Shown in pieces: positions 2,806 to 12,577 of a DNA stretch of 18,451 nucleotides. A program made the translations under genes and the position numbers. Below the pieces are notes generated by a model that was not told the origin of the DNA, did not search any database, and saw nothing but the letters and a program-made list of their open reading frames with translations. The DNA comes from a virus (lineage: Duplodnaviria; Heunggongvirae; Uroviricota; Caudoviricetes). The DNA lies in the IMG/VR virus record IMGVR_UViG_2695420855_000005, positions 1 to 18,451 of that record; one strand, given 5' to 3'. The stretch's first letter is position 1. Every line of letters starts with the position of its first letter.

Positions 2806-3621
2806 TCAGAAAAGAGAAGATTGCTGTGGAATAGCCGGAACTGCTCCGATCTCTGGAAGCGTTTTACGTAAGTCTTCCCACAGGGTATGTACCAGTTCCG
2901 GGGCCTGGGCAATGTCTGGCGTATGTAAAAAAAGATAAGGCGTAGTGGTCTGATGCCACTGCGCTAATTTCTGTAACCAGACCTGAAATAATTCCCGGTT
3001 TTGCGTCATATCATCACTACCGATAAAACGGATCAGCGGATTTGTCGCCGTCAGTACAGCATGTACTGGAACTTTAGGTTTTTTTCGTTGAGCGTCGCGA
3101 ATAGCTTCACTGTGTGGACATGCTGCATGAACCGGGCGGCTGTCTAAAATCACCCGATTAACGCCGCGCTGATGTAAACCGCGATTAAGCGTTTGTTCCT
3201 CTTCCCCTTTGGCGAAAAACTGTGGATGGCGGACTTCCACACCATAATTAAATTCGCCAGGGAGAGAATCGAGAAAATGCCAAAGCGCAGGCAGCTCCCG
3301 TGGGCCGAATGTGGCAGGCAGTTGCAGCCAGTATTGCCCAATGCGCGGAGCCAACGGTGACATGCGGGTCAAAAATTCAGTCACTAAATCATCGCAATGT
3401 CGTAATGCTGCCTGATGCGAAATGGTCGCCGGAAACTTAAAACAGAAGCGGAAGTCATCTGTGGTCTGTTCACGCCAGCGCAGGACAACCTCGGGTTTCG
3501 GCAGGGCGTAAAGCGTGGTGTTGCCCTCCACGCAGTTAATGTGACGGCAACTACCATTAAAATAACTGATATTTAAAGATATTATTTCAGAGTCTGGCTC
3601 TATGGGGCATGTATGGGACAC
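2806..3621 (-). CDS. yecE: DUF72-family protein YecE; 5' ~80 nt appear prophage-derived (hybrid ORF with GTG start), so the N-terminus is probably non-native
   Basis: From ...NCVEGNTTLYALPKPEVVLRWREQTTDDFRFCFKFPATISHQAAL... onward it reads as YecE; first ~27 codons (MSHTCPIEPDSEIISLNISYFNGSCRH) overlap the integrase 3' end and lack the usual DUF72 N-terminal motif (from memory). Confidence 0.75.
   Translation of the reverse strand: MSHTCPIEPDSEIISLNISYFNGSCRHINCVEGNTTLYALPKPEVVLRWREQTTDDFRFCFKFPATISHQAALRHCDDLVTEFLTRMSPLAPRIGQYWLQLPATFGPRELPALWHFLDSLPGEFNYGVEVRHPQFFAKGEEEQTLNRGLHQRGVNRVILDSRPVHAACPHSEAIRDAQRKKPKVPVHAVLTATNPLIRFIGSDDMTQNRELFQVWLQKLAQWHQTTTPYLFLHTPDIAQAPELVHTLWEDLRKTLPEIGAVPAIPQQSSLF
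3535..3590. other. Approximate attL (prophage-host junction): AT-rich stretch at the overlap of the int 3' end and the yecE 5' end
   Basis: Inferred from where yecE-like coding sequence begins and from the int stop at 3587-3589; exact core not determinable without attR or an empty-site sequence. Confidence 0.4.
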
Positions 3622-4873
3622 TCTCTGTCAACTGCTTATTGAGTAGTTCTATTTGCCCGATATTGTTATCTTCCATCCATGCACCGTAAACGTTGAATAC
3701 CATTTGTGCATTTGCATGGCCCATTTGGTTTGCTATGAAGCTTGGATTCGCTCCTGCCGATAATGCCCAGCAGGCATAAGTATGCCTAGACTGATAGGCT
3801 TTTCTGTGCCGCAGTCCTGCTCGCCTTAATGCAGATGCCCAGGAATCTCTGATGGAATCTGCTTTATAGTGGTGGCCGACTTGCTGGCATTTTTTCACCA
3901 GTTGCGGATTAAAAACAAACGTGCATTCATGGCTTGTGCTGCGTCCGAACTCCCGCAGTTTGACATCAATTTGATATTGCTGGTCAAACCTTGTCATTTC
4001 AGCCTGGCTTTTCAGGGCATCAACAGCTGGTTGAACAAGATGAATAACACGATCAGTTCCCGCCTCTGTTTTTGGTAGAGTGAACTCCCCGAGTTTTGTA
4101 TAATTACGACGGATAGTCATTGTTTTAGCTTTTAAATCAATATCCTCCCAGGCGAGAGCTATTAGCTCACCGTGACGAATGCCTGTGTATACTGCTAAGG
4201 ACCACAGGTTTTTCGTTTGTTGATGGTGACAGGCATCAATAAAGCGAATAAATTCGTCACGCGTGAGCGGATCTGGCTCTGTTCTTGATCTCTTTAATGG
4301 TGTCAGCCCGTTAAATGGGTTTGACCCGATATAGCCGTTATCAGCAGCAAATTGAAACATTCCTGCAATTGTCGTCATGTAGTAATTAACCGTAACTACC
4401 GATCTCCCTTTAACCGGCGTTGTTTTTCCATTAGAGAGATTATGATACCCGGTTAACAAATCTTTCCTGATAAACAGTAAATCTTCCTTTGTTACAGACG
4501 AAGCAAGACGTTTTTCCCCTATGCGAGGAAGCATGTTTCTCACCACGGATTGATACCGACTGAATGCATTGCTTCCTATCTCTATTTTCTTAAGGTCCAG
4601 CCATTTTTCCGAAAGTGCCTTAACTGTTATCTCTCTTTTCCCCAGGCCAAAGTGTTTCAGGTTAGGGGAATTAGGGAACTGCGCGGCGTAGTCGAAACTC
4701 CCCATTCTGATTGCAAAACAAACGGAAGTGCGAAGTTCACCTGCGATCTTCCGGTTTTTGGCGGTGTCAGGAACACCGAGGTTTTCTCTGACACGTTTGC
4801 CATTATAGTGAAACCATATGCGGAGTGATCCGCCATGGTTTTCAACGCCTGTCGGGTATGATGCGTTACTCAT
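3587..4873 (-). CDS. int: Phage tyrosine integrase (site-specific recombinase)
   Basis: 428 aa; C-terminal catalytic region ...LRHRKAYQSRHTYACWALSAGANPSFIANQMGHANAQMVFNVYGAWM... consistent with the R-H-R-Y tyrosine-recombinase signature; strong RBS GGGAGG before the ATG. Confidence 0.92.
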   Translation of the reverse strand: MSNASYPTGVENHGGSLRIWFHYNGKRVRENLGVPDTAKNRKIAGELRTSVCFAIRMGSFDYAAQFPNSPNLKHFGLGKREITVKALSEKWLDLKKIEIGSNAFSRYQSVVRNMLPRIGEKRLASSVTKEDLLFIRKDLLTGYHNLSNGKTTPVKGRSVVTVNYYMTTIAGMFQFAADNGYIGSNPFNGLTPLKRSRTEPDPLTRDEFIRFIDACHHQQTKNLWSLAVYTGIRHGELIALAWEDIDLKAKTMTIRRNYTKLGEFTLPKTEAGTDRVIHLVQPAVDALKSQAEMTRFDQQYQIDVKLREFGRSTSHECTFVFNPQLVKKCQQVGHHYKADSIRDSWASALRRAGLRHRKAYQSRHTYACWALSAGANPSFIANQMGHANAQMVFNVYGAWMEDNNIGQIELLNKQLTESVPYMPHRARL

Positions 4874-6003: not shown

Positions 6004-6831
6004 TTATTTAATCTGGATAAATGGTGTATTGGCACCACTGGTCATGTATTGCGGCAGTGTACCGTTCCACTTGTTGATGGCTTCCAGCTCCATGACGCTA
6101 GGGTTCTGGCGCAGAGCTTCGCCGCGTAAACGAATGGCATCGGCTTCTGCTTGGGCTTTTGTTCGAATGGCATCAGCCTGTCCGGCAGCTTCTGCACGCA
6201 GCATGTTGGCCTCCGCTTCACGTTGCTTGACTTCCTGTTCGCGCTGCAGGGTTTTCTGGTTTGCCGTGACTTTGGCGTTAATGCTGTCGATAACGGTTGG
6301 CGGGTATTCCGGTTTACCTACATAAGAGAGGCTCATTACCTGAATGCCGATGGGTGTCATCTCTTCCTGAATGTCTTTAAGTGCGGCATCCAGTAGTTCA
6401 GACTTGCCGCCGTCGATAAATTTGTCGGTGGTCATTTTGCTGGCCAGTCGATTGAGTGCGTCGGCGATCTTCTGGCGCAGGTCAGTGTCGGTAATGTCAT
6501 CCACGCCTTTGCGGTAGGTCTGAAACACCGTGGTAACTTTGGATGGATCAACTTTGTAGGCAACACCGATGTGATAGCCGATGGTTGTGCCGTCACTCAT
6601 CTGGAAGCTGAATGGCTCATCGTAGGTCTTCATTTGTTTGAAGGTTGGGAAGATGTAAACTTCAGTATTCCAGCCAGTCCAGTAGCGACCAACACCGACC
6701 ACCTCACCGACGCCTTTATCGTCGCCCAGTTTATTTACTTTGATGCCAACATTACCGGGTTCAACGCGATCGCAACCGACAAGGCCAATGGTCGGCAGAA
6801 CAATGGCTAAAGCAAAAATAATTTTTTTCAT
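6004..6831 (-). CDS. SPFH/band-7 (prohibitin/HflC-like) domain lipoprotein; lipobox LVGC with Asp at +2 suggests inner-membrane retention
   Basis: MKKIIFALAIVLPTIGLVGCD signal/lipobox; SPFH core then Ala/Glu/Gln-rich coiled coil ...QREQEVKQREAEANMLRAEAAGQADAIRTKAQAEADAIRLRGEALRQNP... typical of the band-7 C-terminus. Confidence 0.85.
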   Translation of the reverse strand: MKKIIFALAIVLPTIGLVGCDRVEPGNVGIKVNKLGDDKGVGEVVGVGRYWTGWNTEVYIFPTFKQMKTYDEPFSFQMSDGTTIGYHIGVAYKVDPSKVTTVFQTYRKGVDDITDTDLRQKIADALNRLASKMTTDKFIDGGKSELLDAALKDIQEEMTPIGIQVMSLSYVGKPEYPPTVIDSINAKVTANQKTLQREQEVKQREAEANMLRAEAAGQADAIRTKAQAEADAIRLRGEALRQNPSVMELEAINKWNGTLPQYMTSGANTPFIQIK

Positions 6832-7016
6832 TTTTTATCCTTAGTGAAAGAAAGACCCTTGTAAATGGCATAAATGCAGGGCGGGGTCAGAAACGCCAGT
6901 GCAAAGCCAGAAATAACTGCTCTCGTATCCTTCATGGATATAAGGAACGGAACGAGTAATCCGTAAATGCATGCGATAATTGCCAGTAAAATTACTATTG
7001 TGAAATACAGTCTCAT
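6828..7016 (-). CDS. Small two-helix membrane protein (62 aa), translationally coupled (ATGA overlap) to the SPFH lipoprotein gene
   Basis: MRLYFTIVILLAIIACIYGLLVPFLISMKDTRAVISGFALAFLTPPCIYAIYKGLSFTKDKK, two hydrophobic segments; weak RBS. Confidence 0.55.
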   Translation of the reverse strand: MRLYFTIVILLAIIACIYGLLVPFLISMKDTRAVISGFALAFLTPPCIYAIYKGLSFTKDKK

Positions 7017-7161
7017 TGGTATGTGGTATCCCGATATTTTTAACTGACAGACAGCGCAATAAAGAGAATAATGATTTCTGTTAGTGTCAGTACTGTGGCA
7101 AGGATTAAAAGCAGTTTTACTCTGCTTAATTCACGGTTGCTTTTCATATAAACGGTTAGTA

Positions 7162-7190
7162 AAAAACGGAAGAGTTATATTCTTCTTAAT
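7162..7190 (-). terminator. Weak intrinsic-terminator candidate downstream of the 190-aa gene (minus strand GAAGA-atataac-TCTTC followed by cgTTTTTT)
   Basis: 5-bp stem, 7-nt loop and T6 run read on the minus strand just after the stop at 7201-7203. Confidence 0.3.
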
Positions 7191-7200
7191 ATTTAATGTG

Positions 7201-7773
7201 TCACTGGCCTTCTGGCATACCATGAGTATTCAGGTCGTTAATTATTTCATCCAGAAGGAGTTCAAGCCCTTCTCGACCTATATCTGAAAGAATGAAACCT
7301 TTATCAGGGGAAGTGGTGAGCATTTTCTGATAAAGAAACAGCGCTCTTCCCATTCCCTCAGCTTCGCCATATGTTTGAATTAAATTCCATTCAATATACT
7401 GCTGTAAGGTAAACCGAATGGGACCTGGGTATATAGTCATAACTCCATGCTTCCCGTTATATATTACGGCGCGATCTGTTGTTCCGTGTTCATTCGGGAC
7501 ATCAATTGTGCCGTTCTTGTCTTCTTCTTCGTTGATGAATGTTGTCACGTACAGCCATCGCCACTGGACTATTTTCATCTCAACAGGGAGTTTTCCCAGT
7601 AATCCTGCATTGTCGGCTTGCGCGAGGCATTGAAGGATTTGCAAACCTTTCACATTAGGATGATCGAATTCACCGGCATCCAGACGGCGGATTGCGTCGT
7701 GATAATCAATAGTCATACTGCCAGTTCGTATACCTGTGGCTGTTGCTTCAGCCTGGAATTCAGCGTATTGCAT
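7201..7773 (-). CDS. Hypothetical protein, 190 aa, no recognisable family
   Basis: ATG preceded by GAGGAG; the upstream gene's stop overlaps this RBS (coupled); moderately acidic, no TM segments. Confidence 0.7.
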   Translation of the reverse strand: MQYAEFQAEATATGIRTGSMTIDYHDAIRRLDAGEFDHPNVKGLQILQCLAQADNAGLLGKLPVEMKIVQWRWLYVTTFINEEEDKNGTIDVPNEHGTTDRAVIYNGKHGVMTIYPGPIRFTLQQYIEWNLIQTYGEAEGMGRALFLYQKMLTTSPDKGFILSDIGREGLELLLDEIINDLNTHGMPEGQ

Positions 7774-7778
7774 GATAT

Positions 7779-7961
7779 TTACTCCTCATCTTCATCTGCT
7801 GGTGCAATAACGTCATATCCTGCCTTTTCTGCAATAAACAGGAATGTTGAAAGACTTCCTACAAGTTCATCGTCATGAACATGACGAATTAATATTACTT
7901 TCCCGTTTTTGATGGTCAGCAATACTCTGGTTTGCTCGTGTTCTGCTGTTTTCTGATGCAT
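7779..7961 (-). CDS. Hypothetical small protein, 60 aa, acidic C-terminus (…APADEDEE)
   Basis: GGGAGA RBS 5 nt before the ATG; first gene of a two-gene cassette with the 190-aa ORF. Confidence 0.55.
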   Translation of the reverse strand: MHQKTAEHEQTRVLLTIKNGKVILIRHVHDDELVGSLSTFLFIAEKAGYDVIAPADEDEE

Positions 7962-8086
7962 TATTATCTCCCATATGCTTTACGCAGAAACAAGCAGGCA
8001 ATATGCATGTAATTTTTCCCGTGCTGTGCAATAAGGCAGGCTGTTTTGTGTGATGCCTTATGTTTTATAAAGGTCATATAAAACCT

Positions 8087-8116
8087 CCTGTGGATTAAGG
8101 GTGTGATAATCCCAGG
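8087..8116. promoter_or_regulatory. Inverted repeat (cctgTGGATTA-n9-TAATCCcagg) in the 200-bp gap upstream of the 60-aa/190-aa cassette; candidate operator
   Basis: Perfect 7-bp arms tggatta/taatcca separated by 9 nt, with partially complementary flanks. Confidence 0.35.
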
Positions 8117-8158
8117 CGATTAAGCCGTAATATATTATCCGGAGATGACTTGTTCTAT

Positions 8159-8359
8159 TTAACTGGTTAGTTCTTTTTCAGCAGCTGCTTCAGCATAGCA
8201 ACGTGCGAATTCAAGAACTTCATCACCTGTTCTTTTTATTGCGTCGTTGTCTGACATTTGTAATACAACAACTGCGCATAATAAATTATGGATATTGTTT
8301 GCAAAGGAATCCGGTGCCAGGCATAAGCCTTCATACTTATCATGGATATTGCCAGTCAT
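8159..8359 (-). CDS. Small protein (66 aa from the ATG with AAGGAG RBS) paralogous to the N-terminal domain of the upstream tandem-HTH protein
   Basis: ...LAPDSFANNIHNLLCAVVVLQMSDNDAIKRTGDEVLEFARCYAEAAAE... aligns with ...LDLDSFALTIANLLSAVRTFNLLDDTRLKEVGFDVLEFTHEYALAIA... of the neighbouring gene; ATGA start/stop overlap. Confidence 0.6.
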   Translation of the reverse strand: MTGNIHDKYEGLCLAPDSFANNIHNLLCAVVVLQMSDNDAIKRTGDEVLEFARCYAEAAAEKELTS

Positions 8360-9057
8360 TGTTGCTGCTCCTTTGCTTCTGATTTTCCCGTTAACAACCA
8401 CATCAGGTCACAATTAAGTGCACTGGCCAGTGGTACTATCTGAGCAGCTGGAACTTCATGGATGCCGCATTCCCAGTCGTTTATGGGGTCACTATAGGTA
8501 TGAATCATGCGGGCAAGATCAGATTCGGTTAATCCCAGTTTTGTACGGGCGCTTTTGATGCGTGCGCCAATACTTTCCACATGGACTTCAGGCGCATTTA
8601 CGCGAATAACTGACTCGCTGTTTTTTTCACTCAGCAGAGAAAGCGGATCGCATCCCAGGACGTTTGCCAGGGGGATAAGCATGCTGATGGTTGGTTCGTA
8701 CTCTCCACTCTCCCATTGCAGGATAATCTCTTCGTCAAGATCGAGTAGTCTGGCCAGTTCGGTAGTCGTCAAGCCGCAGGCTTCACGTTTGGTGCGTATG
8801 CAGGCTATCTTGTTGCCTGAGCGAATAGAATGTTGTTGTTTTGTCGATGCGATCGCTAAAGCATATTCATGAGTAAATTCCAGCACATCAAACCCAACCT
8901 CTTTTAATCGCGTATCATCCAGGAGGTTGAAGGTGCGAACAGCACTGAGCAGGTTTGCGATGGTTAATGCAAAAGAATCGAGGTCTAATTCATCACATAA
9001 AACCTTGTTGTAAGTATTGAGGCTACATGTTTTTGGTGTTGTTTGTAAGGCTTCCAT
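8356..9057 (-). CDS. DNA-binding protein with an N-terminal domain of unknown function followed by two tandem XRE-type helix-turn-helix domains; first gene of the leftward early operon (alternative TTG start at 9093)
   Basis: Two HTH_XRE-like segments (...LTTTELARLLDLDEEIILQWESGEYEPTISMLIPLANVLGCDPLSLL... and ...LTESDLARMIHTYSDPINDWECGIHEVPAAQIVPLASALNCDLMWLL...); ATG at 9057 has a GGTGAT RBS. Confidence 0.75.
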   Translation of the reverse strand: MEALQTTPKTCSLNTYNKVLCDELDLDSFALTIANLLSAVRTFNLLDDTRLKEVGFDVLEFTHEYALAIASTKQQHSIRSGNKIACIRTKREACGLTTTELARLLDLDEEIILQWESGEYEPTISMLIPLANVLGCDPLSLLSEKNSESVIRVNAPEVHVESIGARIKSARTKLGLTESDLARMIHTYSDPINDWECGIHEVPAAQIVPLASALNCDLMWLLTGKSEAKEQQQ

Positions 9058-9111
9058 ATCATCACCATGCAATTCTAAGTTGAAGTTAATCAATATATAA
9101 TTGATGGTGAG

Positions 9112-9140
9112 ATATTATGTATCAGGGAAACTAGTGTCAA
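9112..9140 (-). promoter_or_regulatory. Leftward sigma70 promoter (PL-like): -35 TTGACA, 17-nt spacer, -10 TAATAT on the minus strand
   Basis: Minus strand reads TTGACActagtttccctgatacaTAATAT; sits between cI and the first leftward gene, flanked by TTGAT repeats. Confidence 0.55.
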
Positions 9141-9203
9141 TCAAAAATTGATAAACTTGATTTTTTGTAGTGAGTGACAAATAATTTAATTTAAAATCAA
9201 CAA

Positions 9204-9893
9204 CTAACCAAATCTGTTGATATTGAATGGTACAGATGAGATGACTTTTGACTGGATATACAGCAGCGCCATTCCCTCTTTTTCGATGCTCCACGGCTGA
9301 TAGTTGGGATTGTCTGATAAGACCATGATCTTGCTTCCAATTTTTTGAAGTCGTTTGACGTAACATTCGCCATCAAAGCAAAATGCATAAATGCCATCAC
9401 CGTCAAAATAAGTTACTGTTTTATCTAAAAACAGTAAGTCACCTGGGGCGATTGTTGGGGCCATGCTGTCCCCTCTGGCGTTACCGATTTCTATGTTCTT
9501 GAATGCTCTGTTACCGACCAGGCGGCGGGCATATTCAGGATCAAGTTCTATTGAGCGTACTACATCAATTAGATCTCCCCGTACATGAGTTCCGTCGCCG
9601 CAGCTGAATTCAACATCCAGCACATTGAACACAACGCTGTCTTCTCTTGTATGGTGTTTTTCAGCTGAAGAGTGTGTCGATGAGGTATCTTCACCCAAAA
9701 ACCAGGATTGTGGATAACCACTAATTACTGATAGCTGTGCAAGTTTATCGCTTCTGGGAAACGTCTTTCCTGTAGTCCAGTATTGTACTGATTGCGCGCT
9801 TACACCCAGCTTACGGGCTAGTTCAGCCTGACTCCAGCCTTTCGTTTTCAGCATCATTGCTATCCGATTTTCTGTGCTTTTTACATTCTTCAT
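9204..9893 (-). CDS. cI: Prophage CI-type repressor (N-terminal HTH_XRE + C-terminal LexA/S24 peptidase-like autocleavage domain)
   Basis: HTH ...WSQAELARKLGVSAQSVQYWTTG...; S24 region ...GDSMAPTIAPGDLLFLD...YVKRL... (Ser/Lys dyad); AGGA RBS before the ATG at 9891-9893; divergent from the cro-like gene. Confidence 0.9.
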   Translation of the reverse strand: MKNVKSTENRIAMMLKTKGWSQAELARKLGVSAQSVQYWTTGKTFPRSDKLAQLSVISGYPQSWFLGEDTSSTHSSAEKHHTREDSVVFNVLDVEFSCGDGTHVRGDLIDVVRSIELDPEYARRLVGNRAFKNIEIGNARGDSMAPTIAPGDLLFLDKTVTYFDGDGIYAFCFDGECYVKRLQKIGSKIMVLSDNPNYQPWSIEKEGMALLYIQSKVISSVPFNINRFG

Positions 9894-10025
9894 GGTGAGT
9901 TCCTGTCGAGGCTTTATACACATAAATATTAACTTGATTTTAGTGTATTCGATCCTTTTGAAACTTGCATGTTAATTTATTCTTGATATATTCTTGATTT
10001 GTAAAGTTAATATTGGAGCTGCGCT
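9894..10025. promoter_or_regulatory. Immunity-region intergenic (OR-like): divergent promoters and repeated CTTGAT motifs that are candidate operator half-sites
   Basis: AT-rich 132 bp between divergent cI and cro; CTTGAT three times (aaCTTGATttta, ttCTTGATatat, ttCTTGATttgt); possible rightward promoter TTGATA-n18-TAATAT. Confidence 0.5.
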
Positions 10026-10283
10026 GTGATAAAACTGAATGATTACGACATGTTGCGTAAATTGATCCCTCAAAACGCCATAGCGAGATACATCGGTGTT
10101 ACGCCACAAGCGGTGAACCTGTGGTTTTCTAAAAACTCCGTTCCTTCCCGTTTTGTTTTACGGGTGTGTGAATTGGTTGAATGGAAGGTTACTCCGCATG
10201 GGTTAAGACCTGATCTATACCCTTATCCCGAAGATGGAATTCCTGATTCGTTACGAAAATCAAACGGTATTACCAGAGATTAA
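10026..10283 (+). CDS. cro: Cro/YdaS-like small HTH regulator (GTG start; alternative ATG at 10050)
   Basis: 85 aa; HTH ...NAIARYIGVTPQAVNLWFSKNSVP...; GGAG RBS; divergent from cI. Confidence 0.75.
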   Translation: MIKLNDYDMLRKLIPQNAIARYIGVTPQAVNLWFSKNSVPSRFVLRVCELVEWKVTPHGLRPDLYPYPEDGIPDSLRKSNGITRD

Positions 10284-10364
10284 AGACTGACTGTCACGAG
10301 CAGTAACTCACGATGCATACGTTTTGGCGTGAGTTCTGAAATGTCATTCTCAAGGAGCAATCAG

Positions 10365-11072
10365 ATGAATACCGCAATTTTTACCGATAAAGCATCCATG
10401 ACCAGCGTTGAGATCGCAGAGCTGGTGGGTAAGCGTCATGACAATGTAAAACGCACTATTGAAACATTAGCCAAAGGTGGTGTTGTCCGGTCTCCTCAAA
10501 TTGAGGTTTCCGAAAGAATCAATAACTTAGGGTTTAAAGTTCAACACGAGCATTATCTGTTTGAAGGCGAACAAGGTAAGCGCGACAGTATCATTGTTGT
10601 CGCGCAGCTTTGCCCTGAATTCACCGCTCGCCTGGTAGACCGCTGGCGCGAACTGGAAGAACAAATCCGCAAACCAATGAGCCAGATCGAAATGGTTGCT
10701 GCAATGGCGCTTGAAGCTGTTCGCCAACAAAGACGTCTTGAGCAGGTGGAAGAGAAAGTCACCCACGTTACTGAAACTGTCGAACAAATCAAAAGAGGCG
10801 CCATACGCGATGGTTATGCAGGCTATCGTCAGCTGGCGGCGAAAACGGGTATGTCAGATGCGAAATGCCGCAATCTGGTGAACGCATATCAGATCCCTAC
10901 CGACACTCATGAATTTATGACGCCGGACGGATTGTTGTCGCGTCGTGCAATTGTTGCTGTAGAACCCTTCATGTCTGCTTTTCATCGCATGATGAGTGAA
11001 GCAGAACCACGAGGTACTCGCTGGTATCACCCGAAAATGGGGTTGTTCCAGGCGCTGGGCTGGCAGGTGTAA
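10365..11072 (+). CDS. Rha-family phage regulatory protein (antirepressor-like), 235 aa from the ATG with AAGGAG RBS
   Basis: N-terminal ...TSVEIAELVGKRHDNVKRTIETL... matches the Rha (Phage_pRha) domain as recalled. Confidence 0.8.
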   Translation: MNTAIFTDKASMTSVEIAELVGKRHDNVKRTIETLAKGGVVRSPQIEVSERINNLGFKVQHEHYLFEGEQGKRDSIIVVAQLCPEFTARLVDRWRELEEQIRKPMSQIEMVAAMALEAVRQQRRLEQVEEKVTHVTETVEQIKRGAIRDGYAGYRQLAAKTGMSDAKCRNLVNAYQIPTDTHEFMTPDGLLSRRAIVAVEPFMSAFHRMMSEAEPRGTRWYHPKMGLFQALGWQV

Positions 11073-11091
11073 TTATGCTCACAGGTAACAC

Positions 11092-11265
11092 ATGCAAGTA
11101 CTCAATCGCTGGTTCCGTGATGGAAGGGGGCGTCGCGTCCACGTTATACGCTGGGAGTCTGAAACACAGCGGGTTATTTACCTGCGTGATGGTTATCCGC
11201 ATGAATGCTTCAGCCCGCTGTGGTTGTTTCGTCGTGATTTTGTTGAGTGCGAAGCACCAGCATAA
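11092..11265 (+). CDS. Hypothetical small basic protein (57 aa, MQVLNRWFRDGRGRRVHVIRWESETQRVIYLRDGYPHECFSPLWLFRRDFVECEAPA)
   Basis: Not in the supplied track (<60 aa); same frame as the downstream FinO-like gene; weak RBS. Confidence 0.35.
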   Translation: MQVLNRWFRDGRGRRVHVIRWESETQRVIYLRDGYPHECFSPLWLFRRDFVECEAPA

Positions 11266-11328
11266 GCTTGAACTGCTTGAAAAACCTGGATATATCATTC
11301 TGATATCTAGAGTAATGGAGAATGGTAT

Positions 11329-11721
11329 ATGGGAAGAAAAGCAAGGCATCTTGCAAATAAAGAAATCATTAAAGTATTGGCTGAACGCTATCCAGAAAGC
11401 TTCTTTGTTATTCCATACAAAGTTGTTCCGCTTGTTCACGATATCGTTCATGAGCTTTTTGCCGATCTCGGACATATACCTAAGGAATATAAAAACAGCC
11501 TTCGAAGAGCCATCTATCAGTACAAAAGCTCCGCTGCATACCTTCAGTCAGTCGCGTTTGGAGAATATCGCCGCAATCTGGCTGGAAATCGTATTGTCAG
11601 AACTTCCGTATCTGAGCGCGAAGAAGCCAGAGCACAACTCAAAGAACGTGGTGTCTGGACTCGTCGTATGGAGCTCTTGTTCAAAGTTAATATGGGTAGA
11701 AAAGAAGCGTCTAATCGCTGA
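11329..11721 (+). CDS. FinO/ProQ-domain RNA-binding protein (RNA chaperone family), 130 aa
   Basis: ...KEIIKVLAERYPESFFVIPYKVVPLVHDIVHELFADL...LRRAIYQYKSSAAYLQSVAFGEYRRNLAGNRIVRTSVSEREEARAQLKE... aligns by eye with the E. coli ProQ N-terminal FinO domain (...KEVIAFLAERFPHCF...[49 protein letters not shown]...) from memory; GGAG RBS. Confidence 0.75.
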   Translation: MGRKARHLANKEIIKVLAERYPESFFVIPYKVVPLVHDIVHELFADLGHIPKEYKNSLRRAIYQYKSSAAYLQSVAFGEYRRNLAGNRIVRTSVSEREEARAQLKERGVWTRRMELLFKVNMGRKEASNR

Positions 11722-12013
11722 ATTTTATCAAAACATTGATTCCTCAATTTCGGGACGTTACACTGTTCAGGCACCTTATAAAGCGGGTGTCGGGATTGGC
11801 GTCCTGGAATTCAATATAGAGCATAACCGCGCTCATGCGGTCTTTTCGTATCATGAGCATTGCTACGTCCAAATTATGGTGGGGCGTGCAGGGGCATCGC
11901 AAGATGCGCCGGGTTCTATGTTGACCGGTTACGCCAACCCTGTACGTCTCACCACCTCTGTGATTGGCGTCCCATGTGGTGAGTTCTTTGAATTCAACAT
12001 AGGGGCTGTCACC

Positions 12014-12577
12014 ATGACTACTTTCCCAACTCTCTCTCAACCTGAAATTGCCATCGTTGATGGTCAGGCTGTTACATCTTCTTTGGCTGTTGCTGACTTC
12101 TTCTCTAAACGTCATGACGATGTTCTGAAAAAGATCCGCATTTTGGATTGTTCTCCAGAGTTTTGTGCCCGCAATTTTGCGGAGACATCAATTTTGGTAC
12201 GCCAGCCCAACGGCGGTACTCGCAAACTTCCCTGCTATCAAATCACCCGCGACGGCTTCGCATTCCTTGCTATGGGCTTCACTGGCAAGCGTGCCGCCCG
12301 GTTCAAAGAGGCATACATCAATGCCTTTAACCAGATGGAGAGGAGCTTATCAGGAGCTGGTGCGGCTGAGATGTCATCTGTCGCACAAAACGCCAGAGGC
12401 GTATACCTGCATTTGCGTGAAATCCATCAAATCTGGAGAAGCCAGCTTTATCCCATGCTTAAGGCTGTTGAATCTCCGCTGGCTGGCAAACTGTACGACC
12501 GTGTAGGTGATGCAGTTTTTGGTGCTGCACTTGTTGATTCCAGGCTGAATGGTTCTGACAAGGAGGTGCACCCATGA
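12014..12577 (+). CDS. Second Rha-family phage regulatory protein (188 aa); N-terminal extent uncertain because the frame stays open upstream
   Basis: ...QAVTSSLAVADFFSKRHDDVLKKIRIL... Rha-type motif; ATG preceded by AGGGG. Confidence 0.7.
   Translation: MTTFPTLSQPEIAIVDGQAVTSSLAVADFFSKRHDDVLKKIRILDCSPEFCARNFAETSILVRQPNGGTRKLPCYQITRDGFAFLAMGFTGKRAARFKEAYINAFNQMERSLSGAGAAEMSSVAQNARGVYLHLREIHQIWRSQLYPMLKAVESPLAGKLYDRVGDAVFGAALVDSRLNGSDKEVHP

Follow-up and report, generated by a model that had tools for sequence, protein, structure and literature searches.

Small helical proteins that mimic the oligomerization domain of a repressor have been described in Bacillus subtilis and in a Bacillus phage. 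In B. subtilis, the small hairpin homolog SinI forms a heteromer with the oligomerization hairpin of the XRE/434-like regulator SinR (PMC3163267). AimX, a small helical protein of arbitrium Bacillus phages, was reported to bind the AimC repressor and to block its oligomerization, and the authors themselves draw the parallel to SinI/SinR (10.1101/2025.11.23.689978). A similar arrangement is found in the stretch of 18,451 nucleotides analyzed here (IMG/VR record IMGVR_UViG_2695420855_000005), which is referred to as the window. As in SinR/SinI and SlrR/SlrA, a helix-turn-helix (HTH) regulator with a two-helix hairpin is encoded together with a small protein that consists of the hairpin only, and the two may bind each other. 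The HTH domains of the window regulator group with SinR, 434 and P22 c2 in Foldseek searches, the hairpin lies next to an HTH domain in the AF2 model, and the small protein is homologous to the hairpin only. However, the hairpin sequence is unrelated to that of SinR/SinI, and with neither a Pfam family nor a PDB-profile match it does not belong to the SinI/SinR multimerization family by sequence. Furthermore, the order is reversed in the window, where the hairpin is N-terminal and the chain carries two HTH domains, the small gene is coupled to the regulator gene in translation instead of being under separate control, and the hairpin is a modular element whose type varies independently of that of the free copy. 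AimX and AimC come from another phage group, in which the target is the main repressor, whereas the hairpin-bearing protein of the window is an additional regulator encoded downstream of cI.

The window is a lambdoid prophage integrated beside yecE in E. coli. The region from 7900 to 10300, which comprises the small gene, the regulator, cI and cro, shares 98.9% identity with the chromosome of a clinical E. coli and 96-97% with Stx2a/Stx2d phages of the long-tailed kind from O145:H28. On the minus strand, the gene for a cI-type repressor of type CI1 with an HTH and a Peptidase_S24 domain (9204-9923, RefSeq start at 9893) is followed by a 110-bp spacer, the regulator gene and the small gene. The spacer contains a match to the sigma-70 consensus (9112-9140, minus strand; TTGACA, 17 nt, TAATAT; 10 of 12 positions in a consensus scan), whose location after cI suggests that it functions as a pL-like promoter. 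A perfect palindrome, ATCAAT-N5-ATTGAT, lies between the -10 hexamer and the regulator start (9089-9105, no mismatches), and a second copy with one mismatch overlaps the -35 hexamer (9136-9152, family D14); weaker copies are present in the cI-cro region at 9922-9938 and 9971-9987. These palindromes are candidate CI operators, which would place the promoter under CI control. As regards the target of the regulator itself, a k-mer search of eight heteroimmune regulator loci, from which the HTH-coding part was excluded, recovered only homologous downstream coding sequence as a shared site and yielded no candidate operator. The integrase gene overlaps the 3' end of a yecE-like DUF72 gene by about 35 nt (2806-3621 and 3587-4873, minus strand), which is consistent with integration at the yecE end, as described for such phages. 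On the plus strand, a 500-aa ORF (11075-12577) combines Ash and Rha domains; the equivalent region of the closest genome is split and partly marked as a pseudogene.

Since the two genes come after cI and the TTGACA-17-TAATAT promoter, they occupy the place of lambda N, the first gene after the repressor-controlled leftward promoter, as had been pointed out in the initial annotation. Lambda N is a small arginine-rich RNA-binding antiterminator; the products encoded here are a folded hairpin and HTH proteins and do not qualify as N-type antiterminators. No N-like ORF was seen by eye among the leftward ORFs downstream of the promoter when ORFs of at least 30 aa on both strands were inspected from 7000 to 11000. 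Further along the leftward operon, a 37-aa ORF with a strong Shine-Dalgarno sequence (caGGAGGttttatATG) lies immediately downstream of the small gene (7964-8077, minus strand); it is annotated in Stx1_499, absent from the RefSeq genome annotation and has no family match. The operon also encodes an SPFH/Band-7 protein in the 6004-7016 region (minus strand; Pfam E=6e-31), which is designated 'serine protease' in the LC567830 annotation. A 62-aa hydrophobic ORF (6828-7016) overlaps this gene by 4 nt, and the two products may form a membrane pair.

The regulator and the small protein are both encoded on the minus strand within 8159-9093, the coordinates given in the initial annotation. The longest regulator frame (8356-9093) opens at a TTG at 9093; however, the ATG at 9057 is the likely start, because it is the one used in the RefSeq annotation of the 98.9%-identical locus (WP_053892525.1). 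The resulting protein of 233 aa (8356-9057) belongs to the phiP27 L10-like family (phrog_4836, E=5e-92). Pfam detects two HTH_3 stretches (E=7e-17, 61.7 bits against a gathering cut-off of 23), which identifies it as an HTH regulator of the XRE or Cro/CI type, and nothing in residues 1-80, in agreement with the earlier description of an N-terminal domain of no known family joined to two XRE-type HTH domains. In the AF2 model of the full-length protein, one of the checks proposed earlier, an N-terminal hairpin is followed by HTH1, a disordered linker and HTH2. The hairpin, assigned to type A1, spans residues 24-77 approximately (8827-8988; helices 26-45 and 49-77; pLDDT around 82). HTH1 comprises residues 85-141 (8635-8805) and is nearly invariant across heteroimmune phages, and HTH2 (residues 163-223, 8389-8571) is an internal duplicate of HTH1 with 37% identity (E=2e-13). 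The nearest solved relatives of the HTH domains are the DNA-binding domains of the 434 repressor and P22 c2, the 434 repressor being closest to HTH2; fold searches returned P22 c2, 434 Cro and the 434 repressor.

Several names do not apply to this protein. The best NCBIfam match is DicA, the repressor of the Qin prophage and likewise an XRE-type HTH prophage regulator; the score of 61.8 bits against PRK09706 stays below the cut-off of 101, and HTH2 alone matches. The designation 'CII-like regulator' of phrog_4836 is an annotation only, as Pfam at E<=1 lists generic HTH families and no lambda CII family. RgdR (ECs1581), another prophage regulator, is an unrelated protein of 99 aa. True homologs are L10 and L08 of phage phiP27 and the members of PHROG families 4836, 4739, 4587 and 5451.

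The small gene (8159-8359, minus strand; WP_000147367.1) encodes a protein of 66 aa that belongs to phrog_4587 (E=6e-36) and represents a free hairpin of type A'. AF2 predicts a two-helix hairpin with a pLDDT of 92.6 (helices 16-34 and 39-65). Its ATG (8359-8357) overlaps the regulator TGA (8358-8356) in an ATGA motif at 8356-8359, an arrangement of translational coupling, and an AAGGAG Shine-Dalgarno sequence is located within the last codons of the regulator gene, 8 nt before the ATG (8368-8373). Both elements, noted in the initial annotation, can be read directly from the DNA, and the same layout recurs in hairpin arrays from other genera. The proposed homology of the 66-aa protein to the N-terminal domain alone withstood the pairwise and profile comparisons: BLASTP aligns regulator residues 27-70 with residues 17-60 of the small protein (21 of 44 identical, 48%; E=4e-9), the regulator matches phrog_4587 with E=9e-6 and the small protein matches phrog_4836 with E=6e-5, and a profile of the domain finds both. 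The dN/dS ratio is about 0.2 between the 66-aa form and the hairpin part of the 121-aa protein L08 and ranges from 0.03 to 0.3 in most pairs of L08 alleles. The small gene is a real gene under purifying selection. What the initial annotation observed is confirmed in full.

When the domain profile was compared with 1.84 billion representative proteins, 40 clusters were recovered, in which the hairpin occurs as a free protein of 60-80 aa, at the N-terminus of regulators (136-280 aa) that have either one HTH domain or two, or at the C-terminus of proteins of about 121 aa such as phiP27 L08; a word-index search with the small protein returned close E. coli relatives only. Members with a named source come from E. 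coli, Salmonella, Klebsiella, Pectobacterium and Dickeya. The family shares the motif F.GL..P.DA..NI..L..A...L..s.d....iG..vl.fA..YA.aA, in which the tyrosine is invariant and the asparagine nearly so; the small protein and N-domain types A, C and D match this profile, including the conserved N and Y. L08 (phrog_5451; L003 2833-3198, and relatives) carries an A' hairpin at the C-terminus of its 121 aa, preceded by an unrelated half of about 55 residues that has no known family, and judged by its sequence the 66-aa protein looks like L08 minus this N-terminal half. The hairpin has no relative in Pfam, NCBIfam, PADLOC or PDB sequences: at E<=1, Pfam offers no family for the N-domain or the small protein except a chance lectin match, a sequence-profile search of the PDB returned nothing, and fold searches returned generic hairpins only. 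The PHROG families of the free hairpins and L08, including those of four free types from other genera, are all labeled 'unknown function', and the labeled families are reached only through weak cross-matches to the regulator family phrog_4836. A literature search on phiP27 L10 gave nothing relevant. The hairpins thus constitute a small Enterobacterales prophage family that is uncharacterized in the libraries and papers searched; within these, the family itself, its linkage to immunity and its coupled arrays are new, whereas the logic of a regulator plus a free copy of its domain is already known in kind.

The distribution of the modules was compared across 85 loci (five phage records, 79 IMG/VR loci and the window), which are mostly E. 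coli prophages, many of them near-identical, and do not represent independent samples. In the phiP27 L10 family, HTH1 is almost invariant and HTH2 is present or absent, most members having a single HTH. At least eight types of N-domain are attached to this part (A1-A3, B1-B4, C, D, E, F, G and H). Types A, C and D form one sequence superfamily with the small protein; types B and E are separate by BLAST, type F has a weak link to D only (E=0.03), and types G and H lack a significant BLAST link to the others. Read from their sequences, types B, E, F, G and H are of similar length and look like helix-loop-helix domains by eye. The N-domain type tracks the type of the upstream cI without exception in the 85 loci: CI0 is followed by B1, CI1 by A1, A2 or A3, CI2 by D, CI3 by C, CI4 by F2 and CI5 by H.

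At least one free hairpin gene lies downstream in 83 of the 85 regulator loci; however, its type is independent of that of the regulator N-domain. The A' protein, either in its 66-aa form or as the C-terminus of L08, is found behind regulators of types B1, A1, A2, C, D, F2 and H and in most loci follows a regulator of a type other than A, and a pair of C' and E' hairpins is found behind types A3, C, D and F2. This bears on the proposal in the initial annotation that the small protein could serve as a decoy; on this reading, it would titrate or poison its own 233-aa regulator. Such a role would agree with the hairpin paralogy at 48% identity, with the adjacency and coupling of the two genes, and with SinI/SinR and AimX/AimC as precedents. 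The small protein, however, is not closest to its own regulator, as it shares 50% identity with A2-type regulators of other phages, and nearly the same protein (97% identical) follows a B1-type regulator in Stx1 phages, although the B1 N-domain and A' have no BLAST similarity at E<1. Moreover, coupling provides a fixed ratio, which leaves an antagonist without independent control, and related free hairpins occur where there is no regulator at all. A decoy dedicated to its own regulator is therefore unlikely, and this part of the earlier proposal finds no support in the 85 loci; its other part, heterodimerization with the N-domain, is plausible, since the hairpin appears to need a partner.

Comparison of DNA sequences locates a mosaic joint at about 8797-8800, at the boundary between N-domain and HTH1, i.e. 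at the 5' edge of HTH1. Stx1a phages and some Stx2a phages are 89-99% identical to the window from 7900 to the start of HTH1 and show no identity beyond, and these phages carry a different N-domain, pL and cI. Between the window and A2 or A3 loci, dN amounts to 0.04-0.075 for cI, 0.03-0.10 for HTH1 and 0.35-0.39 for the N-domain, so that the dN of the hairpin N-domain is 4-9 times that of the adjacent cI; these values do not demonstrate positive selection on the N-domain, given a dN/dS below 1 and saturation of synonymous sites throughout. The hairpin N-domain is a mobile module that is inherited along with cI and is, as a rule, encoded first in the pL operon; the 66-aa protein belongs to the same hairpin family and takes the second position. 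The N-domain is better regarded as an association module linked to immunity than as a sensory domain, which had been suggested as an alternative to an oligomerization domain.

The joint indicates frequent recombination, and the small gene could accordingly be regarded as a shuffling remnant devoid of function. Purifying selection, the conservation of the Shine-Dalgarno sequence and of the coupling, and the spread of the family over five genera all argue against this. Alternatively, the pair could be a toxin-antitoxin module with an XRE antitoxin and a small toxin, as the regulator weakly matches XRE antitoxin profiles (HipB, MqsA); these matches, however, reflect a generic HTH and stay under the curated cut-offs, and the small protein has no toxin or PADLOC match, so that neither a toxin-antitoxin system nor a known defense system is recognized. 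Both explanations are very improbable.

Members of the hairpin family are also found in prophages of other genera, in part without any HTH regulator. In Klebsiella (L089 and L090), an S24-type cI is followed by a C-type hairpin of 68 aa, a second hairpin of 61 aa and an E-type hairpin of 71-73 aa, whose genes are ATGA-chained with GGAG(G) 8 nt upstream and are not accompanied by an HTH regulator. Such three-hairpin arrays of C-type, 61-aa type and E-type span 4001-4607 in L089, 4001-4601 in L090, 4001-4799 in L093 and 4001-4601 in L096; in arrays of this kind, the Shine-Dalgarno sequence of the next gene is encoded in the C-terminal codons of the preceding one. A scan of genome contigs with the Klebsiella hairpin as query gave no match. 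In Salmonella (L091 and L092), where an HTH regulator is again absent, the operon opens with a free B-type hairpin that shares 37% identity with the B1 N-domain (E=3e-13), and a C-type hairpin comes second. The E-type hairpin and a following helical ORF of 75-77 aa are separate genes in L089 (4386-4607 and 4570-4803) and L090 and are fused into a single protein of 137 aa in L093 (4386-4799) and L095 (4407-4820), a Rosetta-stone sign that hints at joint action. Finally, L094 (3588-4192) encodes a 138-aa regulator consisting of a hairpin and a single HTH, the latter 59% identical to HTH2 of the window, whose gene is ATGA-coupled to that of a 63-aa free C-type hairpin; the architecture of the window thus recurs with other hairpin types.

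These arrays, together with the linkage to cI, are relevant for an alternative in which a free hairpin does not associate with a fused one and both kinds bind a common third partner, for instance the cognate CI or Cro or a protein of the host. The hairpin encoded first in the pL operon would then be an immunity-specific effector, either antirepressor-like or a commitment factor, the fusion to an HTH in E. coli would be incidental, and the 66-aa protein would act independently of the regulator. The strict tracking of the cI type is in line with this idea, all the more as the pairing of cI and hairpin holds across genera, whether the hairpin is fused or not: the cI of Salmonella L091, which precedes a B-type hairpin, is 75% identical to CI0, and those of Klebsiella L089 and Pectobacterium L088, which occur with a C-type hairpin, are 55% identical to CI3. 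The existence of hairpins without any HTH regulator points in the same direction, and N22 and Y55, two polar residues that do not vary, could indicate a binding site. However, physical linkage of adjacent DNA can produce the same co-inheritance, and nearly identical CI proteins are found beside hairpins that are only 50% identical, which argues against tight co-adaptation of CI and hairpin. A common third partner is a serious possibility, albeit a doubtful one.

We favor the reading in which the hairpin serves protein association and the small protein pairs with partners that carry a hairpin, the N-domain of the regulator among them, thereby setting the oligomeric state of the regulator; we assign it a probability of roughly 40%. 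In this model, the two genes are the first cistrons of a leftward early operon that CI would control. The regulator is a fusion of three modules, namely an immunity-linked hairpin of about 55 residues, a nearly invariant HTH resembling that of the 434 repressor, and a duplicate of this HTH. ATGA coupling would ensure that the small protein is made in a fixed ratio to the regulator, the two hairpins would pack as a four-helix bundle, and the resulting oligomeric state would determine DNA binding or cooperativity at the presumed target of the regulator. Pairing might be an obligate partnership rather than antagonism: as coupling fixes the ratio of the products, a stoichiometric partner fits better than a separately regulated antagonist of the SinI kind.

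Several observations speak for association. By its sequence, helix 1 is about half hydrophobic, which points to more buried surface than a single hairpin could provide, and the hairpin would therefore need a partner. XRE repressors with a single HTH need a dimerization element, and in the single-HTH regulators of this family the hairpin is the only other domain and thus the candidate for this role. A role in association is also favored because the coupled arrays and the fusions suggest joint action, and pairing between hairpins is supported by the recurrence of a coupled hairpin-HTH regulator and free hairpin with other types in L094, by the free hairpin downstream in nearly all regulator loci, and by the precedents SinI/SinR and AimX/AimC. 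Confidence is limited by the lack of co-variation between the free hairpin and the regulator type and by the HTH-less arrays. Given that prophages free of the HTH regulator carry family members as well, the role of the small protein cannot be restricted to this regulator. In addition, with two HTH domains in one chain, the regulator may be able to bind DNA without the hairpin.

Another possibility is interference between prophages, in which a free hairpin imitates the regulator N-domain, or the first-position hairpin, of a different immunity group and works in trans on lambdoid phages that reside in the same cell or co-infect it. The closest fused counterparts of the free types are found in other immunity groups (A for A', C for phi467_n1, E for phi467_n2 and B1 for the Salmonella B-type hairpin), strains 499, 14040 and 14744 each harbor an Stx1 phage with a B1 regulator and an Stx2 phage with an A1 regulator, both of which carry an A' gene, and the N-domain evolves much faster than cI or HTH1, as would be expected if it were escaping mimics. 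However, the rates fall short of showing positive selection for the reasons given above, pL genes are silent in the lysogen, which limits the time of action, and recombinational stacking of old modules would give the same pattern. Interference of this kind is quite improbable. A more inclusive scheme, unlikely as a whole, would be a combinatorial 'hairpin code' shared by enterobacterial lambdoid prophages. Here, fast-evolving hairpins that stand first in the pL operon and are co-inherited with cI would occur free, in coupled arrays or joined to a conserved HTH cassette; specific homo- and hetero-bundles of these hairpins would gate the otherwise invariant DNA-binding regulator and would also enable a prophage to interfere with or sense heteroimmune co-residents, Stx phages included.

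The regulator family is common in E. coli prophages, and its hairpin belongs to no Pfam family; DNA resembling the cI-cro-regulator region is present in 317 of 5,426 complete genomes. The locus is the early regulatory region of long-tailed Stx-phage-like prophages, and variation in the early region has been linked to the amount of Shiga toxin 2 produced per strain, although the genes concerned were not dissected (PMC11333237). Should the hairpins not pair, what would remain is a pL operon whose first product is conserved but unexplained, in phages that apparently lack N. If they do pair, lambdoid phages of Gram-negative bacteria would possess a microprotein switch of the SinI/SinR kind whose specificity element is modular and linked to immunity, and the switch may offer a route of cross-talk among the many prophages of STEC strains.
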